The translations under genes were made by a program, and so were the position numbers. A stretch of DNA of 64,000 nt from a virus (lineage: Duplodnaviria > Caudoviricetes), in the IMG/VR virus record IMGVR_UViG_3300025470_000019, positions 15,102 through 79,101 of that record; one strand, 5' to 3'. Below the pieces are notes generated by a model. The model saw only the letters and a list, made by a program, of their open reading frames with translations. It had not been told where the DNA came from and did not search any database. This document shows positions 837-29,271 of this stretch, piece after piece (the first letter of the stretch is position 1; each line of letters opens with the position of its first letter).

Positions 837-910
837 AAGCTGGTGCTCCTCTTAGCATTAGAGTGGTTGGAAGCGGGAACTTCGCGAACCACAATCATCC
901 TTTATTTATA
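837..910 (-). promoter_or_regulatory. Late promoter plus conserved structured endonuclease leader, copy A
   Basis: Minus strand TATAAATA-aaggatgatt-GTGGTT-CGC-GAAG-ttcccg-CTTC-C-AACCAC-TCTAA-TGCT-aagagg-AGCA-cCAGC-tt-ATG. Confidence 0.85.
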
Positions 911-2486: not shown

Positions 2487-2962
2487 TGAAGAAGATTGAT
2501 CATGTTTTTCTCGATCTAGATGGGGTTGTGTTCGACTTCCATAGCGCAGTCGGCGATCAGCTCCACGATCGAGAAAAATGGTGGAACGAAGGATTCCCAA
2601 ATTTTATCGAGGCTGGTGGCTTCGCTGATCTGCCTCTGCTGCCCGATGCCGAAGAGCTGATGAATTTTCTTAACGAAAACGTATGGGTCACAATCCTATC
2701 TTCAGCTGGCGGGACTCCTAGGTTTGACGAGATCGTTGATCAGAAACTTGAAGCTCTGCACAGGAACGGAATCGAATATCCAGCGATCATCGTCCCTTCC
2801 AAGGGAGTCAAGAAAGATTTTGCGGGCGAGGGTCGCCTCCTGATTGACGACCATCCTGAGAATTGCCAAAACTTCATCGAGGCTGGTGGTGAGGCTATCG
2901 TCCACATCGACGCTGCAACCACGATAGCTCACATCAAAAAACATTACGAATTTTCAAATTAG
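2486..2962 (+). CDS. HAD-family phosphatase / 5'(3')-deoxyribonucleotidase-like
   Basis: FLDLDGV motif I and LLIDD motif IV. Confidence 0.75.
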   Translation: MKKIDHVFLDLDGVVFDFHSAVGDQLHDREKWWNEGFPNFIEAGGFADLPLLPDAEELMNFLNENVWVTILSSAGGTPRFDEIVDQKLEALHRNGIEYPAIIVPSKGVKKDFAGEGRLLIDDHPENCQNFIEAGGEAIVHIDAATTIAHIKKHYEFSN

Positions 2963-2965
2963 TGC

Positions 2966-2994
2966 TTTACCTTTTTTCAAATCTAGGTTAGAAT
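2966..2994 (+). promoter_or_regulatory. Early promoter, copy 1 of 11
   Basis: TTTACC-17 bp (ttttttcaaatctaggt)-TAGAAT; near-identical copies elsewhere. Confidence 0.85.
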
Positions 2995-3026
2995 GAATTA
3001 TAAGGTTGATTGAAAGGAAGTTTGAA

Positions 3027-3371
3027 ATGATCGTCCAAGTTTTCCACTCTGATCGTGAAATCGGTGGTTTCGTGCATGTCGCTGATATCGATGCCCCTGA
3101 GCATTATGATGCGACTCGTGCCCTCGAGTATGCTTTCCGTCGTACTCAGAACATCGAAGGTTCTTGGTCGATGGGTGAAACCATCGAGTTTGATGGTGAC
3201 ACGATTCCTAACATGGACTATGATGCCAGCATCACTGTCGTCCAACCTCTCCGGACTTGGTCTGACGGTCGTGTGATGGGTCATCGTTCTTCGATGATGT
3301 ATGACCGCATGATTGTTGATGGTGAAAACTACGAAGTCGATGCTTTCGGCTTCCGGAAGCTGGAGGCTTGA
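3027..3371 (+). CDS. Hypothetical early protein
   Basis: ORF behind early promoter with GAAAGGAAG RBS. Confidence 0.7.
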   Translation: MIVQVFHSDREIGGFVHVADIDAPEHYDATRALEYAFRRTQNIEGSWSMGETIEFDGDTIPNMDYDASITVVQPLRTWSDGRVMGHRSSMMYDRMIVDGENYEVDAFGFRKLEA

Positions 3372-3373
3372 TT

Positions 3374-3781
3374 ATGACTAAGATTGTTTACAATGCCTGC
3401 TTTGGTGGCTTCGGGCTCTCGCATGAAGCTGTTATGCGTTATGCCGAGATCAAGGGCATCACTCTTTATGTTAATGAGCAGAAGTGGGGTGGTAATGCCT
3501 ACGCGACTGTTCCTTGGGATGAATATGATCGTATTCACGCTGAGTGCAAAAAGGAACGCAACTATCTTCGTGCGAATGAGCTGTATTTCAGCTATAATGA
3601 TATTGAACGCACCGATCCTGCGCTGGTTCAGGTCGTAGAGGAACTTGGCGATGCGGCTAATGGTGCGCATGCTAAGCTGCGTATCAAGGAGCTTTCGCCT
3701 GGTACTCTTTACCGCATCGATGAGTATGATGGAAGTGAGTCGGTGATGACTCAGGATAACTATGATTGGAGTGTTGCGTGA
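3374..3781 (+). CDS. Conserved hypothetical phage protein
   Basis: KIVYNACFGGFGLS...RTDPALVQVVEELG...IDEYDG pattern. Confidence 0.75.
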   Translation: MTKIVYNACFGGFGLSHEAVMRYAEIKGITLYVNEQKWGGNAYATVPWDEYDRIHAECKKERNYLRANELYFSYNDIERTDPALVQVVEELGDAANGAHAKLRIKELSPGTLYRIDEYDGSESVMTQDNYDWSVA

Positions 3782-4185
3782 ACTACGAATTTCCTAACAT
3801 CTACAACATCGATGACGTACTGTGGGCTATCGAAGGTCGCGATGAGTTCGTCGTTGCCGAGAAGGAAGGATACACTGTCATCAACTACAACGTGATGATG
3901 GCTGATACGTTTCCTGATGTGATCATTGATGCTGATCCTTATGATCAAGCTTCTGGTGTGGTTGAGCAGCAGGACTATAACGCAGCAATTCGCCGTGAAT
4001 GTAGAGGTCTGATATTCGACTCGAAGACTGGTGAAATCCTTCGTCGCCCTTTCCACAAGTTCTTCAATGTGAATGAGCGCGAAGAGACTCAGGATCATGT
4101 CATTAATCTGTCGCGTCCTCATGCTATCCAGAAGAAGTGCAGGTTGCTATTCCTGTATTTCGCGTTGGTCAAATGGGTCCACTAA
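3778..4185 (+). pseudogene. N-terminal fragment of an Rnl1-like RNA ligase
   Basis: YTVINY, RRECRGLIFD, PFHKFFNVNE motifs; similarity stops before the KxDG adenylation motif. Confidence 0.7.
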
Positions 4186-4406
4186 GCACCGTTCCGGTGG
4201 AACATATTCATCTTGGAATTGACTGGGACAGCAATACCCTGTTTATTACTCCAAAAGGAGACGAATTGCGCGAAATCAATGTAGACGAGATTTCAGCTAT
4301 CATGAAAAAGTATGACGAACTTTGCTGGACTGAATACAAGATTTCCAAGATCAAGCGTGAAAACGAAGCTCTAAAGAAGAAGTTGAAGGAACTTGAAAAT
4401 GATTAA
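4128..4406 (+). pseudogene. Hypothetical protein, apparently N-terminally truncated
   Basis: Frame PEEVQVAIPVF...GIDWDSNTL opens without RBS, overlapping the ligase fragment. Confidence 0.5.
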
Positions 4407-4653
4407 CTTTGATATTCTTGGTAAGGCTATTAAAGATGTTGCCGGGTATGCTGCAATTGGAGTTGGAGCCGCTTTGGCAGGGATCACATTTGGTGGTTTG
4501 CTTATATACCTTGCAAGCAAATTTGGATTTATAGTTTTCCCAATCATTTGTTGTTTGTTTTTTCTTGGGATGGGCATCGTCTCTCGTTACGAACATCATA
4601 CTAGATTGGATCAGGAATCCAAGAAAAAGATGATGGAAGTTTTGACACGATGA
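4399..4653 (+). CDS. Small two-TM membrane protein
   Basis: Two hydrophobic segments; stop/start coupling with neighbours. Confidence 0.65.
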   Translation: MINFDILGKAIKDVAGYAAIGVGAALAGITFGGLLIYLASKFGFIVFPIICCLFFLGMGIVSRYEHHTRLDQESKKKMMEVLTR

Positions 4654-4823
4654 GTTTCCAGCTTCCGCCCGTAAGATGGGAACCTGTAAAAATACCGAAC
4701 GGTGGAAAAACCACGTTTGATGAAATGCGTGAGGGACTGAGTGAGGAACTTTACCGTCAAGGTGATGCCATTCTTGTTTGGGTAAACGAGGGAGACATAC
4801 TATGGCATACGCTTGCAAAATGA
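4650..4823 (+). CDS. Small hypothetical protein (57 aa, below ORF-track cutoff)
   Basis: ATGA overlap with previous stop; MSFQLPPVRWEP... Confidence 0.5.
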   Translation: MSFQLPPVRWEPVKIPNGGKTTFDEMREGLSEELYRQGDAILVWVNEGDILWHTLAK

Positions 4824-4951
4824 CTAAGGATTAACAATGGAACTACTTAAAGAAAATAGCCACGACCTATCAGAAGTTTCCGCAGAACGTGATAGACATA
4901 TGGCCACATTAGATATATGGTCGCTTGCACGAAAGAGACAGGAACTTGAAA

Positions 4952-5131
4952 ATGACTGAAGATCGGGCAACAGTTCTCCTTAATGCTGTTTTGGAAATCC
5001 TTAACAAGTGCGACGAAGGTCCATATGTTAAGGAATTCTTTGGTGAAACTGCTTTTTATGATGGTACTGATTGTGATGGATATTGTCTAAAAGACGATAT
5101 CGAACATTTTTTGGAGTATGGTGATGCCTAA
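4952..5131 (+). CDS. Small acidic hypothetical protein
   Basis: ORF in co-oriented early cluster. Confidence 0.6.
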   Translation: MTEDRATVLLNAVLEILNKCDEGPYVKEFFGETAFYDGTDCDGYCLKDDIEHFLEYGDA

Positions 5132-5591
5132 GTGCACAATTCTTGTTGGTGTTCCTGGTTCTGGTAAGTCCACGTGGCTCCAGCAACAGAACGTCGATCG
5201 TGGTGTAGTTGCCTCGACCGATAATGTCATTCAGTATCTGGGTGATCATTTCGGATTTGAATACAACGAAATCTTCAGCGAGACTATCCGTTTTGCTGAC
5301 ATGGTCATGGTTCGGCGTATGATCTATAATGCTGAATGCGGTCGAGACATCTATGTCGATCGTACCAATATGTCGGAGAAATCTCGTCGTCAGTTTATCA
5401 ACAAGCTGAAGAAGTATGGCTACGAGTTTGAGTGTGTGGTATTTCCGACTCCTGAACCTGAGGAATGGCAGCGTCGACTGAATTCGCGTCCTGGCAAGAC
5501 CATTCCTCAGGAAGCTATCGATCGTATGGTCAACAGCTATGAGATCCCTCTTGAGTCTGAAGGGTTCTCAAAAATTACGGTGATCAAATGA
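5118..5591 (+). CDS. P-loop kinase (AAA_33 / polynucleotide-kinase-like)
   Basis: Walker A GVPGSGKST; VDRTN; RLNSRPGK.IP lid. Confidence 0.8.
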   Translation: MVMPKCTILVGVPGSGKSTWLQQQNVDRGVVASTDNVIQYLGDHFGFEYNEIFSETIRFADMVMVRRMIYNAECGRDIYVDRTNMSEKSRRQFINKLKKYGYEFECVVFPTPEPEEWQRRLNSRPGKTIPQEAIDRMVNSYEIPLESEGFSKITVIK

Positions 5592-5869
5592 ATAAGCAAA
5601 GAGTCGACATAGACAACTCCTTTGATTTTGGCTTCAGCACAGTTTCTGAAATTGATCTGAAAAACCGAGAAAATGCTGTAGCCAAGCAGGTTCACGAGCA
5701 GGTCTCTAAGAATGCTCAGAGCAAGGTGGATCGGATGTATAAGATGATTATGCCACTGCTCGAGAATCTGAAAAAGGATTCGGAAACGAATGAGTATATC
5801 TATTGGCCGAAACGTGCCGAGATCATCGATCAGTTTATCGACAAGCTCGATGATCTGATTGCTGAATGA
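5588..5869 (+). CDS. Conserved hypothetical T4-like protein
   Basis: FDFGFS...MIMPLL.NLKK..EYIYWP.R pattern. Confidence 0.7.
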   Translation: MNKQRVDIDNSFDFGFSTVSEIDLKNRENAVAKQVHEQVSKNAQSKVDRMYKMIMPLLENLKKDSETNEYIYWPKRAEIIDQFIDKLDDLIAE

Positions 5870-5870
5870 A

Positions 5871-5895
5871 AAAGGGGAGCCAAGAGCTCCCCTTT
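5871..5895. terminator. Bidirectional intrinsic terminator
   Basis: AAAGGGGAGC-caaga-GCTCCCCTTT between convergent genes; identical copy at 15756-15780. Confidence 0.85.
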
Positions 5896-5896
5896 C

Positions 5897-6043
5897 TTAT
5901 GGTCGACCTTGACCGCGATATGGCTTGAATGTCGCTCTCTTGCGTTTGTTCATAGAGCTGGTCTTTGGGTGTTTAATGTCTTGGGAAGTTTTCTTCGGGA
6001 TCCGCTCGTGCTTGACGACGATCTGTTTGGGTGCCTTTGCCAT
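5897..6043 (-). CDS. Small basic protein (48 aa, below ORF-track cutoff)
   Basis: MAKAPKQIVVKHERIPKKTSQDIKHPKTSSMNKRKRATFKPYRGQGRP with GGAG RBS. Confidence 0.7.
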   Translation of the reverse strand: MAKAPKQIVVKHERIPKKTSQDIKHPKTSSMNKRKRATFKPYRGQGRP

Positions 6044-6074
6044 AATTTTCTCCGTATTTTTCAAAAAATAATGC

Positions 6075-6103
6075 TTTACCTTTTTTCAAATCTAAGGTAG
6101 AAT
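6075..6103 (+). promoter_or_regulatory. Early promoter, copy 2
   Basis: TTTACC-17-TAGAAT with conserved spacer. Confidence 0.85.
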
Positions 6104-6134
6104 GTATTTATAGTGATTGAAAGGGAAAAATGAT

Positions 6135-6404
6135 ATGGCTGCTCCTAAGACCGTCCTCCTCGGTGATCGCGTCCGTTACGAATCTGCTGCTGGTACGATC
6201 CGTGGTGAAGTGATCCGCATCCGCCGTGCAATGAATGCTGCGAATCAGCTGATCAACTGGATTTACGTTGAATATCACAACGAAAAATCGCCTTCCAAGA
6301 AGTCGATTGCTGTTCTCGCTGAGACTGCCCTCGAGATGATGAAGTTTGTGGTGACGTTCCGCGACATCGACATTCAGATCGCTCGCGGCGAGAAGGCTGC
6401 ATAA
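6135..6404 (+). CDS. Hypothetical early protein
   Basis: ORF behind early promoter, GAAAGGG RBS. Confidence 0.7.
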   Translation: MAAPKTVLLGDRVRYESAAGTIRGEVIRIRRAMNAANQLINWIYVEYHNEKSPSKKSIAVLAETALEMMKFVVTFRDIDIQIARGEKAA

Positions 6405-6420
6405 TTTTTCAAAAAAGTGC

Positions 6421-6449
6421 TTTTCTTTTTTTCAAATTTAGGTTAGAAT
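6421..6449 (+). promoter_or_regulatory. Early promoter, copy 3
   Basis: TTTTCT-17-TAGAAT with conserved spacer. Confidence 0.8.
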
Positions 6450-6477
6450 GAATTATAGCTTGAAAGGAAACATTGGA

Positions 6478-6687
6478 ATGGAAAAGTCTTTTACCACTGG
6501 CGAACTGATCGCTCGTCTCTACGATAATCTTCGGATTATGGCTCCTCAGGGTGCTGAGAATTCCTACATCGCTGGCTACCTTCAGGGTGTTCTGGCTGAT
6601 GTCGCTGAACGTGGTATGGATGAGCTGGTTAACTACGTTGACTGGACTAACCAGCGTGTTGAAGCCAAGGCTAAGGGAGTTGCTTGA
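6478..6687 (+). CDS. Hypothetical early protein
   Basis: ORF behind early promoter, GAAAGGAA RBS. Confidence 0.7.
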   Translation: MEKSFTTGELIARLYDNLRIMAPQGAENSYIAGYLQGVLADVAERGMDELVNYVDWTNQRVEAKAKGVA

Positions 6688-6688
6688 A

Positions 6689-6889
6689 ATGACCTATGAA
6701 GAATTTGACAACATGTATGACGCCTCCTATGATCTCCAGGATGAGCATATGGAGTATATCATGGAAAACTGCCACGGTGAGCGTGCGATCTGCAATGGCG
6801 ACAGTCTGATTGAGGCTCAGGAAGATGGCTACCTTTATGAGGATTTCCGCGACCACTATATTGAAAAGTGGGTCATGGTGAACGCATAA
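6689..6889 (+). CDS. Small acidic hypothetical protein
   Basis: MTYEEFDNMY...ICNGDSLIEAQEDGYLYEDF. Confidence 0.65.
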   Translation: MTYEEFDNMYDASYDLQDEHMEYIMENCHGERAICNGDSLIEAQEDGYLYEDFRDHYIEKWVMVNA

Positions 6890-6894
6890 AGTGC

Positions 6895-6923
6895 TTTCCT
6901 TATTTTCAAATTTAGGTTAGAAT
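6895..6923 (+). promoter_or_regulatory. Early promoter, copy 4
   Basis: TTTCCT-17-TAGAAT. Confidence 0.85.
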
Positions 6924-6949
6924 GAATTATTGGATTGAAAGGATTTGTT

Positions 6950-7516
6950 ATGCTTCGCAATATTCATGAATTGAGCAACCAAACTTTCTCTGACGTCCAG
7001 AGCGATTATTTTGTTGCAAGAAAGATTTTGGGCTATATGACCAGCGGTCAGATTTTGGTTGAAGACCCGATGACTCGAGAACTCCTCACCAGCGGTCAAA
7101 ACCAATATGGCTTTGAAAAGCTCTTTGAGCTTCTGGCTCGTCTCGGTATGTTTCATGCAGGCAATATGGGCGAGATTATCTATTGCCTGGAAAACAAAGA
7201 TTCTTTGGCCAAGCGGAATCATTCTCCGTGTGACACGGTCAAAGGTGCTGAAGTCAAGACTTCCAAGAGCATTCGGAAGCACACGAATCCAAAAACTGGA
7301 AAGTTTTCATATTATTTTCGAATTTCCGGTCTGGAGAAGAAAGATCGATCGAAGGTCGCTGTCGGAATCAACTATGGCGGTATGCGCCAAACTGCGATTC
7401 TCGATCTGACGGGTCACACCGGAAAGCACCTGAATATTCCCTGCAACGCACATGGCGTGATCAAGAAGAACACCAAGTGGGGTCAGTTTTTTGAAATGAA
7501 ATCTATCGCAGCATAA
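6950..7516 (+). CDS. Hypothetical protein, possibly PD-(D/E)xK nuclease-like
   Basis: D..KGAEVKTS resembles a D...ExK motif; weak. Confidence 0.5.
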   Translation: MLRNIHELSNQTFSDVQSDYFVARKILGYMTSGQILVEDPMTRELLTSGQNQYGFEKLFELLARLGMFHAGNMGEIIYCLENKDSLAKRNHSPCDTVKGAEVKTSKSIRKHTNPKTGKFSYYFRISGLEKKDRSKVAVGINYGGMRQTAILDLTGHTGKHLNIPCNAHGVIKKNTKWGQFFEMKSIAA

Positions 7517-7524
7517 AATAATGC

Positions 7525-7553
7525 TTTACCTTTTTTCAAATTTAGGTTAGAAT
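7525..7553 (+). promoter_or_regulatory. Early promoter, copy 5
   Basis: TTTACC-17-TAGAAT. Confidence 0.85.
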
Positions 7554-7578
7554 GAATTATAGCTTGAAAGGAACTGAT

Positions 7579-7908
7579 ATGACAAATTTTGACCGTGCCA
7601 CCCTCAAGGCTCTCCGCTCGGAAATGGCGGCTGTCCTCGAAAAGTTCGGCATGTCTCGATCGCTCTTCACCGATGCCTATGGGAGCTTGATCAGTAAGCT
7701 GATTGCGGCGCGAATGGCTGCAGGGCTAAGGCAGACCGATGTTGCTAAGCGCCTCGGGAAGCCGCAGTCGTTCGTTTCGAAGGTTGAAACAGGCGAGCGG
7801 CGATTGGACGTCATCGAGTTCGTTGTCGTAATGCGTGCGGTGGGTGCGGACCCAGTGTCCGTCATGCGGGAGGTTGCGGAGACGGTAACCAGCGACCTAA
7901 AAATCTAA
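7579..7908 (+). CDS. Chimeric ORF: 24-aa phage N-terminus fused in frame to a bacterial XRE-family HTH regulator (second ATG at 7651)
   Basis: LIAARMAAGLRQTDVAKRLGKPQSFVSKVETGERRLDVIEF is a typical XRE HTH; codon style shifts after 7650. Confidence 0.8.
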   Translation: MTNFDRATLKALRSEMAAVLEKFGMSRSLFTDAYGSLISKLIAARMAAGLRQTDVAKRLGKPQSFVSKVETGERRLDVIEFVVVMRAVGADPVSVMREVAETVTSDLKI

Positions 7909-8014
7909 CAGACGACCGTCGCTTGCGCCCAACGTATTATAAAACTTAGGTTTCATAATGACCGCCACCTAAGCGACTGATCCAGAGTCGTTTTCCTCAA
8001 GCGTATGATTTTGC

Positions 8015-8043
8015 TTTCTTTATTTTCAAATTTAGGTTAGAAT
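8015..8043 (+). promoter_or_regulatory. Early promoter, copy 6
   Basis: TTTCTT-17-TAGAAT. Confidence 0.85.
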
Positions 8044-8094
8044 GAATAATAGGAAAGGGAATGGTTCCCTCTCCTCTCTTAAAGGAATTATATT

Positions 8095-9057
8095 ATGGCT
8101 CATGAACTCGAAATGATCGGTGATCGCGCTTCGATGGCTTATGCTGGCGATCTCCCTTGGCACGGTCTCGGCACCAAGGTGTCGAATGACCTGACTCCCG
8201 ACCAAATGATGAAGGCTGCTGGTCTCGACTGGACGGTCGACAAGGTTCCCGTCTACGCCGATGTCTATGGCAAGCAGGTCGACGTTGGTCGTCAGGCTCT
8301 CGTTCGCTCGTCGGATCATAAGGTCCTCGACATTATCAGCGACGGCTGGAATCCCGTCCAGAACCACGAGGCTTTCGAATTCTTCAATGATTTCGTTGCC
8401 GCTGGCGATATGGAGATGCATACTGCAGGCTCGCTGAAGGGTGGGCTGAAGGTCTGGGCGCTCGCCAAGGTCAATGAGTCCTTCGAGATCAATGGTGGTG
8501 ATCAGGTTGATGGCTACCTTCTCTTCTCCAACCCTCACCAGTACGGTGCTAGCGTCGATGTGCGCTTCACTCCGATCCGTGTGGTTTGCAATAACACGCT
8601 GACCATGGCTCTCGGTAGCAAGGCTGAAAAGATGTTCCGCCTTAACCACCGTCGTCAGTTTGACGCCGACATGGCCAAGGAGGTCCTGGGCGTTTCTAAG
8701 GACAAGCTGGCTCGCTACAAGGAAATGGCGGCTTACCTGTCGACCAAGCGTTTCACCAACGAGTCGATCGTCGAGTACTTCAACCGAGTGTTCCCGATGA
8801 CTAACGGCGAGAAGGCTAAGACTGGCGAGCTCGGTTCGCGTGCAGCGAATCAGGCTTTTGATGTCCTCGAGAGCCAGCCTGGTGCTGAATATGCTCGTGG
8901 CAGCTGGTGGCAGGCTTTCAATGCCGTCACCTACTCGACTGATCACCTGCTGGGTCGTTCGACGGATACCCGCCTGACCTCGGCTTGGTATGGTGTGAAT
9001 CAGCGCCGTAAGATCGAGGCTGGTAACCTCGCTCTGGAGATGGCTGGTGCAGCCTAA
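8095..9057 (+). CDS. DUF932/DUF945-family protein
   Basis: PWHGLG, AGLDW.V, TAGSLKGG..VW.LA, TPIRVVCNNTL motifs. Confidence 0.85.
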   Translation: MAHELEMIGDRASMAYAGDLPWHGLGTKVSNDLTPDQMMKAAGLDWTVDKVPVYADVYGKQVDVGRQALVRSSDHKVLDIISDGWNPVQNHEAFEFFNDFVAAGDMEMHTAGSLKGGLKVWALAKVNESFEINGGDQVDGYLLFSNPHQYGASVDVRFTPIRVVCNNTLTMALGSKAEKMFRLNHRRQFDADMAKEVLGVSKDKLARYKEMAAYLSTKRFTNESIVEYFNRVFPMTNGEKAKTGELGSRAANQAFDVLESQPGAEYARGSWWQAFNAVTYSTDHLLGRSTDTRLTSAWYGVNQRRKIEAGNLALEMAGAA

Positions 9058-9059
9058 GA

Positions 9060-9271
9060 TAGCCTACCTGATCGATGAGAATGCTGAGGCTGAGGCTCGT
9101 GCCAAGATCGCTACGGCTGAGGGTGATGCTAAGGCTACCCAGATTGAAGCCAATGCTATCTCGTCTAACCCCCAGATCCTTACCCAGCGTATGATCGAAA
9201 AGTGGGACGGTCACTATCCTCAGTACGTTGGTGGCGGCTTGCCTCTGCCGACCCTCGCGATCAAGAAGTAA
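9060..9271 (+). pseudogene. C-terminal fragment of an SPFH/band-7 protein
   Basis: AEAEARAKIATAEGDAKA...IEKWDGHYPQYVGG with no credible start or RBS. Confidence 0.6.
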
Positions 9272-9280
9272 CTCCCGACT

Positions 9281-9315
9281 GTGAGGGAATCTTTTTTGGG
9301 TTCCCTCACTTTTTT
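9281..9315 (+). terminator. Intrinsic terminator
   Basis: GTGAGGGAA...TTCCCTCAC followed by T6. Confidence 0.8.
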
Positions 9316-9317
9316 GC

Positions 9318-9346
9318 TTTCTTTATTTTCAAATCTAGGTTAGAAT
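9318..9346 (+). promoter_or_regulatory. Early promoter, copy 7
   Basis: TTTCTT-17-TAGAAT. Confidence 0.85.
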
Positions 9347-9370
9347 GAATAATAGGAAAGGGAGTTTGCT

Positions 9371-9571
9371 ATGAAGTATGTCTTGATTATCGGTGGTATC
9401 CTTCTTATGGCTGGCGCTGCTGGGTCTTCGGACTTCTATGACCAGTGCAAGGCTGCGGCTGACTGTGTTGCGGGCGATCCCCCGAGCACTCTCCGAATCA
9501 TTCTCCAGAGCCTCGCTGGTCTGGCGATGCTGTTTATCGGTGTCGCTAAGTCTCTTCAAGATGACGCTTGA
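9371..9571 (+). CDS. Small membrane protein
   Basis: Two hydrophobic segments, RBS GAAAGGGAG. Confidence 0.65.
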   Translation: MKYVLIIGGILLMAGAAGSSDFYDQCKAAADCVAGDPPSTLRIILQSLAGLAMLFIGVAKSLQDDA

Positions 9572-9884
9572 TTCATTCTTTGAACCAGAAATGGTGAACG
9601 AAGTCCAGACGCTGGATGAGAAGATCAAACAGCGTAGGACGCAAATGCTGATACATTCCTATCGGTATTATGTCCTAGACGACCCTGTGATCACTGACGA
9701 AAAGTGGCAACAGTGGGCTGATGAGTTGGTCGAGCTTCAAAAGCGAAAGCTGAAGATTGGCTTCTACGATAAAGAATTCTCTGACTGGACTGGTGCTACT
9801 GGAATGCATCTTCCATTCGATAAGTGGATTAGAGACAAGGTAAAATACCTAAATAAAATATCAGTTGTTGACAATCAACAATAA
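9561..9884 (+). CDS. Protein resembling the N-terminal domain of NAD-dependent DNA ligase
   Basis: HSYRYYVLDDPVITDEKW...ELVELQ pattern. Confidence 0.65.
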   Translation: MTLDSFFEPEMVNEVQTLDEKIKQRRTQMLIHSYRYYVLDDPVITDEKWQQWADELVELQKRKLKIGFYDKEFSDWTGATGMHLPFDKWIRDKVKYLNKISVVDNQQ

Positions 9885-10217
9885 AGGCGGAAAGACTGGG
9901 GTTCGACTCCCCACACCTCCACCATCATTCATTACCTTTGTGGTGCCTGCTGGGCAGCAATGGCTTTCTCGGTTACTCGTAAGTGATCATAACGGTAACT
10001 GTGGATAGTGAAAAGGTCTCCTAGCGCAAGGAGATACCCAACGTGATGGATGATGATGGGGGTGAACTGGGATCGATTTTCGTGTAATAGGGCGATCGAG
10101 ACTGATTCGGTGGTCGAGCGACCAAAAACAATAAATGCTAACGATAACGAAAGCATTGCTCTAGCTGCATAAGCTAGACTAGGGTTCGGTGGGTACCTCG
10201 TAACAGAAACCCACCAC
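9862..10217 (+). ncRNA. ssrA: Permuted (two-piece) tmRNA: acceptor piece ends CCA at 9924, coding piece starts at 10058
   Basis: T-arm GGGGTTCGACTCCCC plus CACCTCCACCA precede GGGGGTG; the strands form an acceptor stem with G3.U70; tag ANDNESIALAA-stop at 10137-10172. The 5' end is approximate. Confidence 0.9.
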
Positions 10218-10221
10218 TTAT

Positions 10222-10250
10222 TCCCCTGTCGTCTAACGGTAGGACATCTA
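10222..10250 (+). pseudogene. 5' fragment of a tRNA (acceptor 5' strand plus D-arm)
   Basis: TCCCCTG-TC-GTCT-AACGGT-AGGAC closely matches the 5' end of tRNA-Gln at 14782; no anticodon arm follows. Confidence 0.7.
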
Positions 10251-10258
10251 AATATTTT

Positions 10259-10290
10259 GATAAATAAAACATAAGGATAAGATATGTTTT
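10259..10290 (+). promoter_or_regulatory. Late promoter with RBS/ATG-sequestering hairpin
   Basis: gATAAATA overlapping AAAACATA-aggataaga-TATGTTTT; the stem covers the ATG and the loop holds the RBS. Confidence 0.75.
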
Positions 10291-10919
10291 ATACAATATA
10301 TTCGATAACAAATTTATCAGATGGCAAAATATATATCGGAAAGCATAAAACCAATAATTTAGATGATGGTTATATGGGTTCTGGTACACTGATTCGTAGA
10401 GCCATTTCTAAACATGGTATCGAAAACTTTAAAAAAGAAATTTTATTCGTTTTCGATAACAAAAACGAAATGGACTTAAAAGAAAAAGAATTAGTCAATG
10501 AAAATTTTGTTTTGTCTACGTTAACCTACAACTTATCTTTAGGTGGAAAAGGTGGGTGGAATCCTAGTAAATCTAAAGTCGCATTTCTTGGAAAAAAGCA
10601 TTCCGAAGAAAGTAGAAAACGAATAGGTGAAGCTAGTAGGAATAGAATTCATTCACCAGAATCCAAAAAGAAAATGAGTGATTCTCGTAGGGGTGTCTCA
10701 AAACCCAATACATCTATTTCTCTTAAAGGAAAAATGAAAACAGATGAACATAAAAAGAAAATAAGTGAATCGCTGAAAAATAGAGATCCTAAAAAAGTTC
10801 CTAAGGGTTATAAAAGAAAATCTAAACAGATATGGATCAATAACGGAGAATATTCTACCAGAATTAACTCAGAGTTGTTGATTCCAAACGGATTCATCAA
10901 AGGAAGATTAAAGAAATAG
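10284..10919 (+). mobile_element. Free-standing GIY-YIG (Seg-like) endonuclease with NUMOD3 repeats, in the tRNA cluster
   Basis: TIYSITNLSDGKIYIGKH, YMGSG, KHSEESRKRI and HSPESKKKMS repeats. Confidence 0.85.
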
Positions 10920-10920
10920 T

Positions 10921-10996
10921 TGCTCTCTGGTGCAATTGGCAGCACGTCTGACTCTGACTCAGAAGGTTCCAGGTTCGACCCCTGGGAGAGCATCCA
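10921..10996 (+). tRNA. tRNA-Gln(CTG)
   Basis: Cloverleaf; TCTGA-CTCTGAC-TCAGA anticodon arm; U1-A72; encoded CCA. Confidence 0.9.
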
Positions 10997-11005
10997 ATTT
11001 TTTAG

Positions 11006-11034
11006 TTGACATCACAGTCAACACCGTGTATAAT
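11006..11034 (+). promoter_or_regulatory. Consensus sigma70 promoter upstream of tRNA-Gln(TTG)
   Basis: TTGACA-17 bp-TATAAT. Confidence 0.8.
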
Positions 11035-11051
11035 ACGAAAACAATTTACAT

Positions 11052-11125
11052 TGCCCCTTCCTCTAATGGTAAGAGAGCGGACTTTGAATCCGTCAATCTT
11101 GGTTCGAATCCAGTCGGGGGATCCA
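11052..11125 (+). tRNA. tRNA-Gln(TTG), mismatched, probably chimeric
   Basis: GCGGA-CTTTGAA-TCCGT anticodon arm, TTCGAAT T-loop, CCA; mismatches G2:G71, U7:C66, C49:U65. Confidence 0.7.
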
Positions 11126-11180
11126 CGTTTAACCGTTCTCAAAGCACGGTAGACCGTTTTCCATAACCCCTCTAGATGAC

Positions 11181-11440
11181 CTAAATACTATTGTTAATAC
11201 TGGAGGAAACTGCCTCCATTGACTCTTACACCAGCTTCAAGTCCTTATGTGGCTAAGAAAGCGATAAAGATTTCGGTCTTTATCACCGACGAAAACACTA
11301 ATGATTTTGCATTCTCAGTAAGAGGAGAATGGATGTAGAAGATACCTCTATAATTAATCTCGTTTCTGTATCTTCTCATAGCGTTATTGCCCCTGAATTG
11401 TTTTATACAGGCAATAATTAGCCAAGTCATTAAATTGATG
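11181..11440 (+). ncRNA. Candidate structured RNA or long 5' leader behind a late promoter
   Basis: CTAAATA at 11181; five hairpins of 6-9 bp, four enclosed by TGGCTAA/TTAGCCA (11250-11256/11418-11424). Confidence 0.5.
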
Positions 11441-11449
11441 AGGATACAA

Positions 11450-12022
11450 ATGAGACTCTTCGAACATAGAAAAGATTTTCCTTTTATAAGATGGGCTGAG
11501 GGATTCTTGCTCGGCGCTATCGCGATAATTGTAATTATAAGTCTGATTCCACACAATCAGCCAAAACCAGTAATCATTGAGAAACCTATCATTAAGGTTA
11601 TTGAGAAACCAACTATCGTCAAAGTCCCAGTCCGATTGACTGCCCATGACCAGCAACAAATCCAGTGCCTCGCCGAAAACACATATTTCGAGGCTGGTAA
11701 CCAATCAACAAAAGGCAAAATTGCCGTCAACAATGTTGTTATGAATAGAGTAAAGGATCCTTCCCACCGATTCGGTAAGACTGCTTGCGCCGTGGTTGCT
11801 CAAAAGACCAAAGGCACCTGCCAGTTCTCGTGGAAGTGTATGAGATTGAAAATTCATAGCCATGAACAATTCGCTGAAAGCAAGCGAGTTGCTGAACAAG
11901 TTTATCTTGGTAACGTCGGAGACGTTACAGGAGGCGCAAAATTTTATCACGCTAACTACGTAAATCCACACTGGAATTTGCATAGATTAATCCAGATCGG
12001 TGCACATATTTTTTACGCTTGA
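11450..12022 (+). CDS. SleB-like cell-wall hydrolase with N-terminal TM anchor
   Basis: CLAENTYFEA, VNNVVMNRV, CQFSW, GAKFYHA.YVNP.W, IGAHIFY. Confidence 0.85.
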   Translation: MRLFEHRKDFPFIRWAEGFLLGAIAIIVIISLIPHNQPKPVIIEKPIIKVIEKPTIVKVPVRLTAHDQQQIQCLAENTYFEAGNQSTKGKIAVNNVVMNRVKDPSHRFGKTACAVVAQKTKGTCQFSWKCMRLKIHSHEQFAESKRVAEQVYLGNVGDVTGGAKFYHANYVNPHWNLHRLIQIGAHIFYA

Positions 12023-12039
12023 TGAAGGAACACTATATA

Positions 12040-12267
12040 ATGAGTATGACTAAGATTAAAGAGTTGTGCGAAGTGATTGAAGAACTGGTTTGGAAGCACG
12101 ATATTCCTTACATGGACGCGATCGTTTTATATTGCGAAACGAATAACATCGAAATTGAAACGATCGCCAAGTTTGTTAAGAATAATGATATGCTGAAAGC
12201 AAGGGTTCAGATTGAAGCTGAAGGTCTCAATTATCTTCCGAAGTCGTCTACCCTTCCTATTGATTGA
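12040..12267 (+). CDS. gp33: Late-transcription coactivator gp33
   Basis: IEELV...IPYMDAIV.YCE...IEIE.I...LK..V..EAE.LNYL; located upstream of gp32. Confidence 0.75.
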   Translation: MSMTKIKELCEVIEELVWKHDIPYMDAIVLYCETNNIEIETIAKFVKNNDMLKARVQIEAEGLNYLPKSSTLPID

Positions 12268-12280
12268 ATAAGGAATCATA

Positions 12281-12859
12281 ATGTCTACAAAGTTGAATTT
12301 TAATATTGGTGGTCTCCCTATCCATCTTGGTGGTCACGAAAACGAGACCCACCTAGATGAAGGTGCTCTTGATTATATCATCAATACCTTTGGAGTTAAG
12401 TCGATGGTAGACATCGGCTGTGGTCCGGCTGGTATGGTCGAGCTGGCTCGCTCCAAGGGTATTGAAGTTCTGGGCGTTGATGGCGACTTTATTGTCGATC
12501 GCGCTGTTACTGATATTGTCATTCATGATTATCAGGTTGCTCCCTATGTCCCCGAAAAGAACTATGACCTTGCTTGGACTGTCGAATTCGTCGAGCATAT
12601 CGAGGAAGGTTATATGCGCAATTTCATCTCAACGATGGATAAGTGCAAGTATGTGCTGATGACTCATGCGCTTCCTGGTCAGCCAGGACACCACCATGTT
12701 AATTGTCAGACTGTCGAATACTGGATTCACATGATGAATGCATTCGGCTTTACTACTGATGTGGAACACACGAATGCTATTCGTGCTGCTTCTACTATGA
12801 AGGAACGCTATATCCGCGAACAGTCTCTGTTCCTCGTGAATAGAAATTATACCGGATAA
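12281..12859 (+). CDS. Class I SAM-dependent methyltransferase
   Basis: DIGCGPA motif I, VEFVEHI, PGQPGHHHVN. Confidence 0.75.
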   Translation: MSTKLNFNIGGLPIHLGGHENETHLDEGALDYIINTFGVKSMVDIGCGPAGMVELARSKGIEVLGVDGDFIVDRAVTDIVIHDYQVAPYVPEKNYDLAWTVEFVEHIEEGYMRNFISTMDKCKYVLMTHALPGQPGHHHVNCQTVEYWIHMMNAFGFTTDVEHTNAIRAASTMKERYIREQSLFLVNRNYTG

Positions 12860-12872
12860 GCAAATAGTGCTT

Positions 12873-12902
12873 TACTTTAAAAGAAAAGTAGAGTATAAAT
12901 AT
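12873..12902 (+). promoter_or_regulatory. Composite early/late promoter of gp32
   Basis: TTTACT-17-TATAAA overlapping the late box TATAAATA. Confidence 0.65.
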
Positions 12903-12967
12903 AACTGTGATTATGAATAACGTGAAACAAAACTGTCTATACACTGTAACACAAGGAAATAATACGT

Positions 12968-13918
12968 ATGTCAAACTTTGCATCTCTTAAGAATTCGAGC
13001 CAAGATTCTCTCCGTAAGCTGACCGAACAGGTTAGCAAGATGACCTCCCCATCGGGCGGTAAGGAAGAAGAAGCCAACAAGTTCTGGAAGGCTACCGTCG
13101 ATAAGACTGGTAACGGCTCGGCAATCCTTCGCTTTCTCCCTGCACCTGACGGTGAAGATGTTCCTTTCGTTCGTTTCTGGGACCATGGTTTCCAGGGACC
13201 AACCGGAAAGTGGTATATCGAGAAGTCGCGCACTTCGCTCGGCGAGAAGGATCCTGTAGCTGAATACAACTCGAAGCTGTGGCGCGAATCTGATAATGAT
13301 GATTCTCCGCAGCGCAAGCAGGCTCGCAAGCAGAAGCGTCGCGAGCATTTCGTTGCCAATATTCTCGTTGTCAAGGATCCTGCTAATCCTGAAAACAACG
13401 GCAAGGTCTTCCTCTACGATTTCGGTAAGAAGATTTTCAATAAGCTCAACGAACTGATGCATCCGATCGATGACGGTATCGAAGAAGTTAAGGCGATCGA
13501 TCCATTTAATATGTGGTCGGGTGCTGACTTCTACCTTCGCATTCGTAACGTCGATGGCTACCGTAACTACGACAAGTCGAGCTTCGGTGATCAGAAGGCA
13601 ATCAGTGATGACGATGACGCTCTTGAAGCTATCTGGAAGTCTGAGCATTCGCTGAAGGATTTCGTTGACCCTAAGAACTACAAGTCGTTCGAGGATCTCG
13701 AAAAGCGTCTGAACGAAGTTCTTGACCTCAATACTCATATCCGTCGCACTGATGAGCCTATGGCTCGTGCTGAGGCTCCTGTCCAAAAGACAGCCCAGCC
13801 AGCTGCTTCTACCTTTGACGTTGAAGAAGATGATGTTCCTTGGAGCAACTCTAGTGCAGCTACGACCGAAGAAGACGATGACATGTCGTTTTTTCGCCGA
13901 CTAGCCGAGGAAGATTGA
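12968..13918 (+). CDS. gp32: Single-stranded DNA-binding protein gp32
   Basis: GNGSAILRFLPAP, HGFQGPTGKWYIE, GKVFLY.FGKKIF, YRNYDKS.F, acidic tail. Confidence 0.95.
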   Translation: MSNFASLKNSSQDSLRKLTEQVSKMTSPSGGKEEEANKFWKATVDKTGNGSAILRFLPAPDGEDVPFVRFWDHGFQGPTGKWYIEKSRTSLGEKDPVAEYNSKLWRESDNDDSPQRKQARKQKRREHFVANILVVKDPANPENNGKVFLYDFGKKIFNKLNELMHPIDDGIEEVKAIDPFNMWSGADFYLRIRNVDGYRNYDKSSFGDQKAISDDDDALEAIWKSEHSLKDFVDPKNYKSFEDLEKRLNEVLDLNTHIRRTDEPMARAEAPVQKTAQPAASTFDVEEDDVPWSNSSAATTEEDDDMSFFRRLAEED

Positions 13919-13919
13919 T

Positions 13920-14516
13920 TTAGTCTAACTGGGATAGATGTTTATTTGATTTTAGATGTCTATCCCAGTTCATACTACCTTTAATAGACCTTGCACAAAC
14001 TTTACAATGATTAACAACCCTATTTTTTGCGGACTCTGATAATTTTTTCTTTGTTGCTTCTGAATGTTTAATTCCAACCGTTCTTTTTAGGTTCTCATGA
14101 ACAGGCTTGCCTTTCAATCTATTTGATCTTTCTTTCTTGGCCTGTTCTGAGTGTTTACATCCTTTTGGTTTTCCTTTTATCATTGGCAAACCAAGGACGA
14201 GTCTCACTTCGTTTGTCATGCCCTTTGTGTGGCTCCAAGAACCGTGGCCTCCAACTGTCATGTTATACGTGTCATCTCTGCGTATAAAGGCATCATTGAC
14301 AATCTGAGATTCTTTCAGATACATATCTTCTTCGGAATCCAAATAAAATAGTATTGTTTTTGTGAAAGATTCTACACCATATTTTTTTATAGCGGACTTT
14401 ATTGCGGTTCCTGAACCCATATATCTATCTTGTGGATTATGCGTTTTATGTGAACCTACATATATTTTATCATTGACTTTATTTTTGACTTCATATACAG
14501 TATAATAAATAGGCAT
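13920..14516 (-). mobile_element. Free-standing GIY-YIG endonuclease with NUMOD3 repeats and C-terminal Zn finger
   Basis: TVYEVKNKVNDKIYVGSH, YMGSG, HSEQAK/HSEATK, CKVC...H...H. Confidence 0.85.
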
Positions 14517-14586
14517 GCTGATTCTCCTACCATAGAGTTAGAGTGACTGGATACAGGAATATCGCGAGTCACATAAAATTATTTAG
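14517..14586 (-). promoter_or_regulatory. Late promoter plus conserved structured endonuclease leader, copy F
   Basis: CTAAATA-attttat-GTGACT-CGC-GATA-ttcctg-TATC-C-AGTCAC-TCTAA-ctctatggtaggagaa-tCAGC-ATG. Confidence 0.85.
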
Positions 14587-14609
14587 TAAAACAAGACTAA
14601 ATAACGAGC

Positions 14610-14663
14610 TAGTCGGGGAGGAAACCTTTCTTCCTTTCAAATCCTCCCCGACGAACAACTAAC
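14610..14663 (+). ncRNA. Candidate hairpin sRNA (tRNA-Ser leader) with an anti-RBS loop
   Basis: CTAAATA at 14597; perfect 11-bp stem 14612-14622/14642-14652; loop AACCTTTCTTCCTTTCAAA. Confidence 0.55.
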
Positions 14664-14753
14664 GGAGGTGTGGCAGAGCTTGGTTTATTGCACCTGACTT
14701 GAAATCAGACGTACTGAAAGGTACCGTGGGTTCGAATCCTACCACCTCCGCCA
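14664..14753 (+). tRNA. tRNA-Ser(TGA)
   Basis: GGAGGTG/CACCTCC acceptor stem, long variable arm, CTTGAAA loop, G73-CCA. Confidence 0.9.
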
Positions 14754-14781
14754 TCTATTTTAATAATATTAATAATTTTAT

Positions 14782-14855
14782 TGCCCTTTCGTCTAGCGGT
14801 AGGACCTCGCACTTTGACTGCGAAGACCGAGGTTCGAATCCTCGCGGGGCATCCA
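14782..14855 (+). tRNA. tRNA-Gln(TTG)
   Basis: TCGCA-CTTTGAC-TGCGA anticodon arm; CGAGG-TTCGAAT-CCTCG T-arm; U1-A72; CCA. Confidence 0.9.
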
Positions 14856-14870
14856 TTTTAGGAGTTTATC

Positions 14871-15290
14871 ATGGCAAAAGCAATTCTTGAAGAAATTGAA
14901 TTCAAAAACGATCTTGGTCAGACCATCAAGCCTGGAGACGAAGTCGTAATTGTTACCACTGGCTATAGCCATAGCGTTTCGACCAACAAGGGAACATATG
15001 TTGGCATGGTCAATGGTGGCGCATCTATTGTAAAGCAGGTCAAGACTTCTTACTATGCATTTAAGAGTAATGGCGAGAGGGTTCCACGCTCTTGGTGGAA
15101 TGAAATGTATGCTGAACAGCGTGCCTTGGTATCAGATGGACGCAATGCTGATAAAAACTATCGCTACTGGGCTGATCCTCAATATAAGGAAATTCAAGAG
15201 AAGCGTTATGCTCTTATCGAAAAGAAGTATGAAATCTTCCCACGGAAGACGACTCTGAAACTGAACCGAGCATATAAGCTCGCAGCCTAA
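14871..15290 (+). CDS. Hypothetical protein
   Basis: ORF with AGGAG RBS. Confidence 0.7.
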   Translation: MAKAILEEIEFKNDLGQTIKPGDEVVIVTTGYSHSVSTNKGTYVGMVNGGASIVKQVKTSYYAFKSNGERVPRSWWNEMYAEQRALVSDGRNADKNYRYWADPQYKEIQEKRYALIEKKYEIFPRKTTLKLNRAYKLAA

Positions 15291-15303
15291 AGGAAATTAT
15301 ATT

Positions 15304-15546
15304 ATGACTGATGCAACTGCAACTGATGACCGCCTCCGCCTTCTGATCGAACGCATTGAGCGACTCAATGAAGAGAAGAAGGGTATTTCTGACGATATCC
15401 GTGATGTCTATAACGAAGGTGCTGCTACTGGATACGACAAGAAGATTATGCGAAAGATGATTAGAATCCGCAAGCAGAATCGTGATGATCGTTTGAACGA
15501 AGAAGCTATGACCGAAACATATAAGGCAGCACTGGGGATTGAATAA
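15304..15546 (+). CDS. gapR: DUF2312 / GapR-like nucleoid-associated protein
   Basis: LRLLIERIERLNEEKKGISDDIRDVY.E....GYD.KIMRKMIRIRK. Confidence 0.85.
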   Translation: MTDATATDDRLRLLIERIERLNEEKKGISDDIRDVYNEGAATGYDKKIMRKMIRIRKQNRDDRLNEEAMTETYKAALGIE

Positions 15547-15752
15547 TGACAATGATTAAGGAATACTACGGGAACCAGCCTTTTGGTACTCGAACCTCGT
15601 CTGTCCATGACGACGTTAAGGGATATGTGGTTTCGTTTCTGGACAACAACCAAGTCTTGAATCGAATTATCTATCCCGAACTATCTCTGGCTGAAGATGC
15701 AGCCTCTGGTTGGTGTAATGGTCGAGGTGGACCGACGGTCTTGAATGGATAA
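15546..15752 (+). CDS. Hypothetical protein
   Basis: Coupled to the previous stop codon. Confidence 0.6.
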   Translation: MTMIKEYYGNQPFGTRTSSVHDDVKGYVVSFLDNNQVLNRIIYPELSLAEDAASGWCNGRGGPTVLNG

Positions 15753-15755
15753 AAG

Positions 15756-15780
15756 AAAGGGGAGCCAAGAGCTCCCCTTT
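15756..15780. terminator. Bidirectional intrinsic terminator
   Basis: Identical to the hairpin at 5871-5895; lies between convergent blocks. Confidence 0.85.
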
Positions 15781-15833
15781 TAGTTTTGAGATTCACCCAT
15801 ATTATGCTCGGGTTTCGATCTCAGTAATTATAT

Positions 15834-16079
15834 TTAGTTGTTGTCGTCGGTAGGTGCTTTTGGAGCAAACTTCTCCACTCCAGTAATACCCATGCCGCCA
15901 ATGACGATATACATGATTGCATTAAACATAAATTCTTCAACAGTAAACTTCCAGAACAGATTAGCAATGAAAGCAGTTGCCATAAGAACTGTGCAAAGAA
16001 GAACGACCAGTCTCTTTGACGATGGCGACCCATTAGGATCTTCCATGATACCTTTGATATAGCTAACGATTCCACCCAT
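15834..16079 (-). CDS. Small two-TM membrane protein (holin-like)
   Basis: PSSKRL followed by two TM helices and a polar tail. Confidence 0.55.
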   Translation of the reverse strand: MGGIVSYIKGIMEDPNGSPSSKRLVVLLCTVLMATAFIANLFWKFTVEEFMFNAIMYIVIGGMGITGVEKFAPKAPTDDNN

Positions 16080-20152: not shown

Positions 20153-20216
20153 TATAAATAGATGGTAGTCGCGGATGGCGGTCCCACTACCACTAATACT
20201 AACTGGAGTATCAGCT
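20153..20216 (+). promoter_or_regulatory. Late promoter plus conserved structured endonuclease leader, copy D
   Basis: TATAAATA-gat-GGTAGT-CGC-GGAT-ggcg-GTCC-C-ACTACC-ACTAA-TACT-aactgg-AGTA-tCAGC-t-ATG. Confidence 0.85.
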
Positions 20217-29206: not shown

Positions 29207-29271
29207 CTAAATAAAAGTGGTTCGCGATGTACCACCATCCAACCACACTAACGTCACTGGAGACAATCAGC
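29207..29271 (+). promoter_or_regulatory. Late promoter plus conserved structured endonuclease leader, copy C
   Basis: CTAAATA-aaa-GTGGTT-CGC-GATG-taccac-CATC-C-AACCAC-ACTAA-cGTC-actgga-GACaa-tCAGC-ATG. Confidence 0.85.

Follow-up and report, generated by a model that had tools for sequence, protein, structure and literature searches.

The locus and its hairpin

The stretch of DNA analysed here, referred to as the window, comprises 64 kb of a 79-kb viral contig. It belongs to a T4-like myophage that also encodes a baseplate hub, a tail tube and a gp5-like lysozyme, and that carries an alphaproteobacterial-type permuted tmRNA along with four tRNAs. The nearest phage in GenBank is Caulobacter phage Cr30, whose gp32 is 50% identical, and a blastn search of positions 14000-15400 against GenBank phages matched only the endonuclease and the tRNAs, with no close relative. 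A GapR-like DNA-binding protein encoded at 15304-15546 on the + strand (PF10073, E 1.5e-29), about 70% identical to GapR of Novosphingobium, points to a host among the Sphingomonadales, with Novosphingobium as the probable host group. The GapR-like gene is kept beside gene 32 in most relatives. The relatives that carry the hairpin described below form a clade of freshwater T4-like phages that are uncultured and probably infect Sphingomonadales.

Table 1. Features of the gene 32-tRNA region and of the first early cassette (positions in the window)
Feature	Position	Strand	Basis or remark
First copy of the early promoter-leader cassette; TTGAAAGGAAG at 3010-3020	2956-3026	+	repeat family D1
Gene 32 (gp32, ssDNA-binding protein)	12968-13918	+	PHROG 224, E 8e-105; Pfam gp32 in homologues
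Free-standing GIY-YIG/SegE-like homing endonuclease	13920-14516	-	PHROG 314; Pfam GIY-YIG, SegE_GIY-YIG, NUMOD3, zinc finger
CTAAATA late-promoter-like box of the endonuclease, followed by the shared endonuclease leader	14580-14586	-	
Relic of the ancestral gp32 stop (GAC TAA) and spacer, holding CTAAATA	14595-14611	+	
CTAAATA box	14597-14603	+	candidate late promoter, +1 near 14609
Hairpin 5' arm GTCGGGGAGGA	14612-14622	+	sequence and fold
Hairpin loop AACCTTTCTTCCTTTCAAA (RNA form AACCUUUCUUCCUUUCAAA), 19 nt, G-free	14623-14641	+	sequence and fold
Hairpin 3' arm TCCTCCCCGAC	14642-14652	+	sequence and fold
Spacer GAACAACTAAC, 11 nt, up to the RNase P site of tRNA-Ser	14653-14663	+	no U-tract
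tRNA-Ser(UGA) (tga)	14664-14753	+	ARAGORN; Rfam tRNA, 51.6 bits
tRNA-Gln(UUG)	14782-14855	+	ARAGORN; Rfam

The initial annotation of this region had described a CTAAATA box, a perfect 11-bp stem, a 19-nt loop and a hairpin end just before tRNA-Ser, all of which are present (Table 1). The stem is rich in G+C, with eight G-C pairs, and the RNA fold reaches -21.6 kcal/mol (z -4.25), a stability equalled by 1 of 200 shuffled sequences. The loop holds two tandem boxes that resemble an anti-Shine-Dalgarno (anti-SD) sequence, CCUUUC and UUCCUUUC. The hairpin is present once per genome, and no comparable CU-loop hairpin was found elsewhere in genomes G000-G004, where G000 denotes the genome of the window. 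A terminator scan made no call on it, its 3' tail GAACAACUAAC contains no U-tract and its loop of 19 nt exceeds the usual size of about 3-8 nt; since the spacer is devoid of a U-tract, the hairpin is not an intrinsic terminator. The same combination of a large loop and no U-tract is common to all relatives of the hairpin clade. A cmscan of positions 9000-16000 against Rfam 15 (E<=1) returned only tRNA and tmRNA and nothing on 14597-14663, and no match to the hairpin came from the Rfam families of C4, of the alphaproteobacterial ar/AbcR/cuckoo-type sRNAs or of tRNA-like elements.

A hairpin of the gene 32 3' end

Comparison with relatives places the hairpin at the end of gene 32. In every relative it starts 9-20 nt past the gp32 stop codon, and in L001, L002, L083 and L270-L275 the endonuclease is absent from this position, so that the hairpin directly follows the stop. 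The gp32 stop and spacer of L001 (GAC-TAA-ATAACGAGCTAG) recur unchanged in the 18 nt of window positions 14595-14612, the last of which is the first base of the stem; this indicates that the endonuclease was inserted between gene 32 and the hairpin in the window. Judged from these junctions, the ancestral gene 32 had the hairpin as its 3' end. DNA contigs from four sequencing runs yielded mostly tRNA cross-matches; one X7 contig joins 13843 to 14593 and may represent a form lacking the endonuclease, evidence that is too weak to use. The promoter region of gene 32 (12870-12901) contains an early-type -35 element (GTGCTTTAC) and TATAAATA, and the ancestral hairpin would consequently be made whenever gene 32 is.

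The CTAAATA box requires separate consideration. In the T4-like phage Aeh1, CTAAATA at -12..-6 has been reported as the late promoter (PMC1524935), and a T4-type late promoter was defined here as (T/C)(A)TAAATA at -13/-12..-6, intergenic and upstream of late genes. The window contains 13 copies of CTAAATA against 9.6 expected, which is not significant, and 10 of the 13 are intergenic and face gene starts; TATAAATA, by comparison, is strongly enriched, with 13 copies against 2.8 expected. The box at 14597 shares nucleotides with the ancestral gp32 stop codon; L001, L083 and L270 retain it, and it has been lost from L002 (CTAAGAG), L085 (CTAAAAC), L272-L275 and L277. The initial annotation had called the RNA late, a designation that does not hold as a general property, given this overlap and the absence of the box from several relatives. 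For the window itself, it is plausible that transcription would start near 14609, 1-3 nt before the stem, and that RNase P would cut at 14663/14664, yielding an RNA of about 55 nt. A search of sequencing runs listed no RNA run containing the sequence.

Relatives L275 and L277 carry the hairpin and have no tRNA. As the hairpin can stand without a tRNA and several relatives have lost CTAAATA, neither lateness nor the position in a tRNA leader defines the element, which is best regarded as a hairpin of the gene 32 3' end in modified form rather than a tRNA leader or an intrinsically late RNA.

Covariation of the stem and conservation of the loop

Relatives were gathered without using the loop, by gp32 peptide scans of IMG/VR and JGI metagenomes, by the pattern of gp32 stop, gap and tRNA-Ser, and by gp32 homologues in a set of 5.8 billion proteins that were traced to their contigs; all hairpin versions were thus found, or re-found, independently of the loop sequence. 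Eleven distinct versions were obtained, at gp32 identities of 65-77%. MAFFT alignments did not bring all stems into one register, and pair counts were taken from a purpose-written script instead.

The stems measure 11-13 bp, and their 5' arms share a mean identity of only 62%. Aligned from the outermost pair, 10 of 11 stem positions show two to four Watson-Crick pair types, and the 121 pair cells of the 11 outer-aligned positions include a single mismatch (A-C, in L271). The fold of every version has a z of -4 to -6. With lengths of 15-20 nt and 0-1 G, the loops retain the core (C)CUUUC(C)-N0-2-UUCCUUUC(C), in which the two boxes are 8-9 nt apart; UUCCUUUC is present in 10 of the 11 versions, the exception being L277 with its degenerate loop UCCUUUUGUAUCUUUUCUCC. 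A comparison of loop and stem conservation in relatives, which had been put forward with the initial annotation as a check, accordingly came out in favour of an RNA element: the stems covary and the CU-rich core is kept. A selected hairpin with a loop that is read sequence-specifically would be expected to show just such covarying stems and a retained loop core. The hairpin is a selected, structured RNA element of the + strand, with a loop that is sequence-constrained and always open.

The element is not universal among close lineages. The hairpin is missing from L276, the loop of L279 measures 7 nt, and the L003 type keeps the outer stem around a different interior of 31 nt. About 150 distinct hairpins that follow gp32 were surveyed; nearly all were tetraloop terminators with a T-run, and the large CU loop was limited to the hairpin clade and one unrelated lineage, L173.

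In that lineage (L173, L190-L193; gp32 identity 48%), L173 (IMG/VR 3300000117_001093) has at 2132-2167 a true gene 32 terminator with a T-run and a 12-nt loop, UUUUUCCUUUCU, that contains the same anti-SD-like box, with no tRNA nearby. An 83% relative of L173 has a TTCG tetraloop. The other members of the lineage are near-identical and offer no covariation.

Likeness to the ribosomal anti-SD tail

The 3' tail of Novosphingobium 16S rRNA reads ..CACCUCCUUUCU / ..CACCTCCTTTCT / ..GGATCACCTCCTTTCT, and it has UCCUUUC in common with the loop box UUCCUUUC. The hexamers enriched upstream of starts in G000 and in the related genomes G002 (73 kb) and G003 (40 kb), namely AAGGAG, TAAGGA, AAAGGA, AAGGAA, GAAAGG and AGGAGA, are complements of ..CUCCUUUC. 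The loop carries a U where the rRNA carries a C. It would therefore match purine tracts of the GGAAAGG(AA) type better than the 16S tail does and compete for them with 30S subunits, being superior to the ribosome on GAAAGGAA and useless for GGAGG; as it contains no CCUCC core, most ribosome-binding sites (RBSs) of the AGGAG type would be untouched. A search of two complete Novosphingobium genomes for a host analogue, CTTTC-N0-3-TTCCTTTC, gave one match with no hairpin around it.

Possible pairing with ribosome-binding sites

The initial annotation had placed complements of the loop before the starts at 3027, 6478, 7579 and 6950, and these were all recovered: TTGAAAGGAAG before ATG 3027, TTGAAAGGAA at 6460 and 7564, and TTGAAAGGA at 6935. 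Its additional GAAAGG sites are found before 6135, 9371 and 32600 (a minus-strand start), but the site assigned to 8095 is not the SD of that gene, which is TAAAGGAA, with GGAAAGGG lying 40 nt upstream. In the window, TTGAAAGGA occurs 8 times against 1.05 expected. These matches belong to an early promoter-leader cassette of about 59 nt, TGCTTTACC..TAGAAT-GAATTATAG-cTTGAAAGGAA (TTGAAAGGAA), which is present in seven copies within 2956-9366; apart from the copy listed in Table 1, they start at 6065, 6411, 6885, 7515, 8005 and 9308. Since the 9-11-nt RBS matches sit in this one cassette, they are not independent but copies of one event. The relatives G002 and G003 have the promoter part in common with different leaders, for instance AATAATAGGAGA, and TGAAAGGAA occurs in them nowhere outside the hairpin, their loops being related to that of the window, not identical. 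Within coding regions, for example in Lys/Glu-rich stretches, 9-11-nt matches to the purine-rich complement of the loop are about as common.

Duplex energies of the loop were calculated against all predicted initiation regions, with 200 composition-preserving shuffles of the loop as the control. Sites at or below -10 kcal/mol numbered 15 in G000 against 7.1 +/- 3.9 for shuffled loops (fraction as extreme, 0.04), 11 against 6.2 in G002 (0.125) and 10 against 3.6 in G003 (0.01), and for the five best energies the fraction as extreme was 0.045-0.15. In this shuffled-loop control, which the initial annotation had proposed, pairing thus exceeds the background, but only marginally, at fractions of 0.01-0.15 overall. 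Among first genes of G000, RBSs behind early promoters pair at -10.3 kcal/mol and those behind late promoters at -6.3 (p 0.012); the corresponding comparison is not significant in G002 (-8.5 vs -8.0) or in G003 (-8.2 vs -6.5 kcal/mol, p 0.16).

The top match in both G002 and G003 is a small early gene, the orthologous 5' end of which also ranks high in G000 (window 7579, G002 28975, G003 21713). Common ancestry of its RBS explains the recurrent match as well as selection does, and no covariation between loop and target could be shown. In the window gene at 7579-7908 on the + strand, homology to the 117-aa early gene of G002 is confined to the first ~35 residues, the remainder being an HTH/XRE-like domain. 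Two further candidate partners were set aside. Pairing of the loop with the variable arm of tRNA-Ser, which contains GAAAGG in the window and in L001, is not kept in L002 and L083, and the loop-like TTTCTTCCT in the gp32 coding sequence, inspected by eye, encodes the conserved RFLP motif and is coincidental.

Proposed function and competing explanations

The explanation we place highest, with a probability of about 0.35, is that of a gene-32-linked hairpin that mimics the anti-SD sequence and pairs with ribosome-binding sites of the GGAAAGG type. The terminator-position hairpin of a T4-like gene 32 would have lost its U-tract and gained a G-free loop of 15-20 nt with two tandem anti-SD-like boxes, (C)CUUUC(C)..UUCCUUUC(C). 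If tRNA-Ser comes next, RNase P cleavage 6-12 nt past the hairpin would give a gene 32 mRNA that ends in it; in the window, where the endonuclease separates it from gene 32, a leader RNA of about 55 nt would extend from the relic CTAAATA to the RNase P site. We infer that this RNA accumulates and that its function is pairing with RBSs: the loop, always single-stranded, would anneal to purine tracts of the GGAAAGG(AA) type within initiation regions, in competition with 30S subunits, and so lower the translation of the mRNAs concerned, a subset that in G000 is enriched among the first genes behind early promoters. A more far-reaching version of this reading, which we regard as doubtful, makes the hairpin an RNA decoy of the ribosomal anti-SD tail, borne on the gene 32 mRNA 3' end or a tRNA leader, that would out-compete 30S subunits on GGAAAGGAA-type RBSs and silence a defined, largely early class of mRNAs, as an RNA counterpart of T4 RegB. 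The mimic reading has to contend with the loss or replacement of the loop in the L003 type, L276 and L279, and with matches of equal length in coding regions.

Nearly as likely, and likewise tentative, is a role in stability or processing that involves no base pairing, in which the hairpin would protect the long-lived gene 32 mRNA against 3' exonucleases and, in the window, cap the 5' end of the tRNA precursor, and the CU boxes would bind a protein such as S1, gp32 or another phage or host RNA-binding protein. Both gp32 and S1 bind with little sequence specificity, which would leave the invariant UUCCUUUC unexplained; we know of no candidate protein with CCUUUC specificity, and a pure exonuclease barrier needs no conserved loop of 15-20 nt. 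This explanation gains from the position of the hairpin, the same as that of the gene 32 terminator hairpin in ~150 relatives and always abutting the gp32 stop, even where L275 and L277 have no tRNA; two boxes 8-9 nt apart would also suit a dimeric or multi-domain binder, and the statistics of RBS pairing are weak. Gene 32 mRNA is, in addition, the most stable mRNA of T4 (PMC3014915).

The initial annotation had proposed a late leader RNA, released by RNase P, that shuts off early, and perhaps host, translation in trans at the early-to-late switch. Parts of this proposal persist, namely the conserved, anti-SD-like loop, the best pairing at early-cassette RBSs in G000, and a CTAAATA box that is rightly placed for a start just before the stem and is retained in three relatives; nevertheless, the long matches reside in a single cassette and are absent from G002 and G003, the TTGAAAGGAA leaders being peculiar to the window genome, and the difference between early and late genes is not significant in those two. 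An ancestral hairpin co-transcribed with gene 32 would moreover not be late-specific, and the box overlaps the gp32 stop and is often lost, so that we consider a dedicated late regulator unlikely. The hairpin may regulate translation, with the idea of an early-gene switch-off weakly supported. Action in cis, as in icaR of S. aureus, where the 3'-UTR loop would pair with the SD region of gene 32, close the mRNA and tune gp32 synthesis, is disfavoured and the least probable of the explanations. It would fit the fact that most relatives carry the hairpin within the gene 32 transcript, and the gene 32 SD AAGGAAA pairs over 6-7 nt with UUUCCUU; the energies of the loop-leader duplexes, however, go no lower than -6 to -9 kcal/mol and do not surpass those of shuffled loops at any of the 10 loci (fraction as extreme, 0.09-0.68), the SDs of L002 and L173 are of the AGGAGAA type and unmatched by the loop, and the endonuclease separates the two partners in the window. 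A DNA-level role, or none, whether as the scar of an endonuclease hot spot, as a terminator in decay or as a polypurine-polypyrimidine tract that acts on recombination or replication, is also disfavoured and very improbable. Endonucleases have been inserted on either side of the hairpin according to lineage (the window and L003), and some lineages are without the loop, yet the changes in the stem are strictly compensatory, with G-U pairs on the + strand among them, which indicates selection on the folded + strand RNA, and the loop has been kept while its flanks diverged to saturation.

Relation to known RNA elements

The intrinsic terminator of T4-like gene 32 is the closest counterpart in position, at 0-25 nt from the gp32 stop, and the G-rich 5' arm and C-rich 3' arm of the hairpin resemble the phage's own terminators (GGGGAGC..GCTCCCC, 5871 and 15756). 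It differs from the gene 32 terminator in having no U-tract, a loop of 15-20 nt rather than 3-6 nt and a conserved loop sequence, and transcription must read through it into tRNA-Ser. The phage terminators at 5871-5895 and 15756-15780 are two identical 25-nt palindromes, AAAGGGGAGCCAAGAGCTCCCCTTT, that lie 9.9 kb apart and are bidirectional, with U-tracts on both strands.

Small RNAs with C/U-rich loops that pair with SD regions include RsaE/RoxS in Firmicutes and CcsR ('cuckoo') and AbcR in Alphaproteobacteria. The hairpin shares with them a repeated, unpaired pyrimidine-rich motif in a hairpin loop, complementary to purine-rich RBSs, and the motif is single-stranded and conserved while the stem varies. 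Unlike them, it has no Rfam match, its motif is CCUUUC/UUCCUUUC rather than CCUCCUCCC or UCCC, and it consists of one hairpin, lodged in a lytic phage's mRNA 3' end or tRNA leader and lacking a terminator of its own.

RNase P is involved in the maturation of the c4 RNA of phages P1 and P7. Loops of this antisense RNA pair around the RBS and block translation (PMC12197685). The c4 RNA is a dedicated immunity RNA of temperate phages, about 77 nt long, with specific a'/b' sites in its own operon, whereas the hairpin has no Rfam match to C4, no defined cognate target and another genomic context. The hairpin works most like the C/U-rich-loop sRNAs and the P1/P7 c4 RNA and is a member of neither group, since it has no Rfam match, a different motif and no independent gene.

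RNAs derived from tRNA spacers offer a further parallel, in that a by-product of a tRNA precursor could act as a base-pairing RNA. In Escherichia coli, 3'ETS-leuZ is a tRNA 3' trailer that sponges sRNAs with Hfq; the hairpin, by contrast, lies 5' of the tRNA and is tied primarily to gene 32, and no tRNA follows it in L275 and L277 or in the L173 lineage. T4 RegB inactivates early mRNAs at their SD (PMC3014915), and the outcome proposed for the hairpin resembles that of RegB/S1, a selective functional inactivation of an mRNA class via the SD; RegB is a protein endonuclease that cuts GGAG, whereas the hairpin RNA would mask sites of the GGAAAGG type. PeSL (promoter-early stem-loop) cassettes occur in T4-like phages (PMC4122927, PMC2839356). 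They have their likeness in the seven-copy early promoter-leader cassette of the window that holds the RBS matches of the initial annotation; the hairpin, with one copy per genome and no early promoter after it, is not a PeSL.

Significance and other leaders

No description of such an element was found in the literature searched, and the searched passages of a 2025 review of phage-derived sRNAs name nothing of this kind (PMC12197685). Hardly any regulatory RNAs are known from strictly lytic phages of the T4 type, and the hairpin provides a compact RNA motif, backed by covariation, with a testable logic of two anti-SD-like boxes in an obligatorily open loop. Among the mRNAs of such phages, the one to which it is attached, that of gene 32, stands out for the greatest stability and the tightest regulation. 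If the hairpin masks a subclass of RBSs, it would show that phages can reprogram translation through a mimic of the rRNA tail; if it binds a protein, it would represent a new operator in the regulation of gene 32. In either case, it offers an experimental handle in phage systems of Sphingomonadales and Caulobacter.

The 5' leader of gene 32 (12900-12967; ..AUGAAUAACGUGAAACAAAACUGUCUAUACACUGUAACACAAGGAAAUAAUAC..AUG) shows strong nucleotide-level conservation in L001, L002, L083 and L270-L277, despite gp32 identities of only 65-77%, and it is a candidate autoregulatory operator by analogy with the pseudoknot and leader of T4 gene 32. The endonuclease beside the hairpin is preceded by one of six copies of a cassette that combines a late promoter with a structured leader, located at 903-910(-), 14580-14586(-), 20153-20160(+), 29207-29213(+), 34414-34421(+) and 38751-38758(-), each with about 70 nt downstream. 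The cassette consists of (T/C)(A)TAAATA, a GTGGTTCGCGAT-like box that pairs with ..CCAACCAC in a hairpin of 6-8 bp, TCTAAC and AGGAGnAnCAGC-ATG. Each copy precedes a free-standing homing endonuclease gene, and as these belong to different families (GIY-YIG, NUMOD3, HNH), unrelated endonucleases share one late leader.
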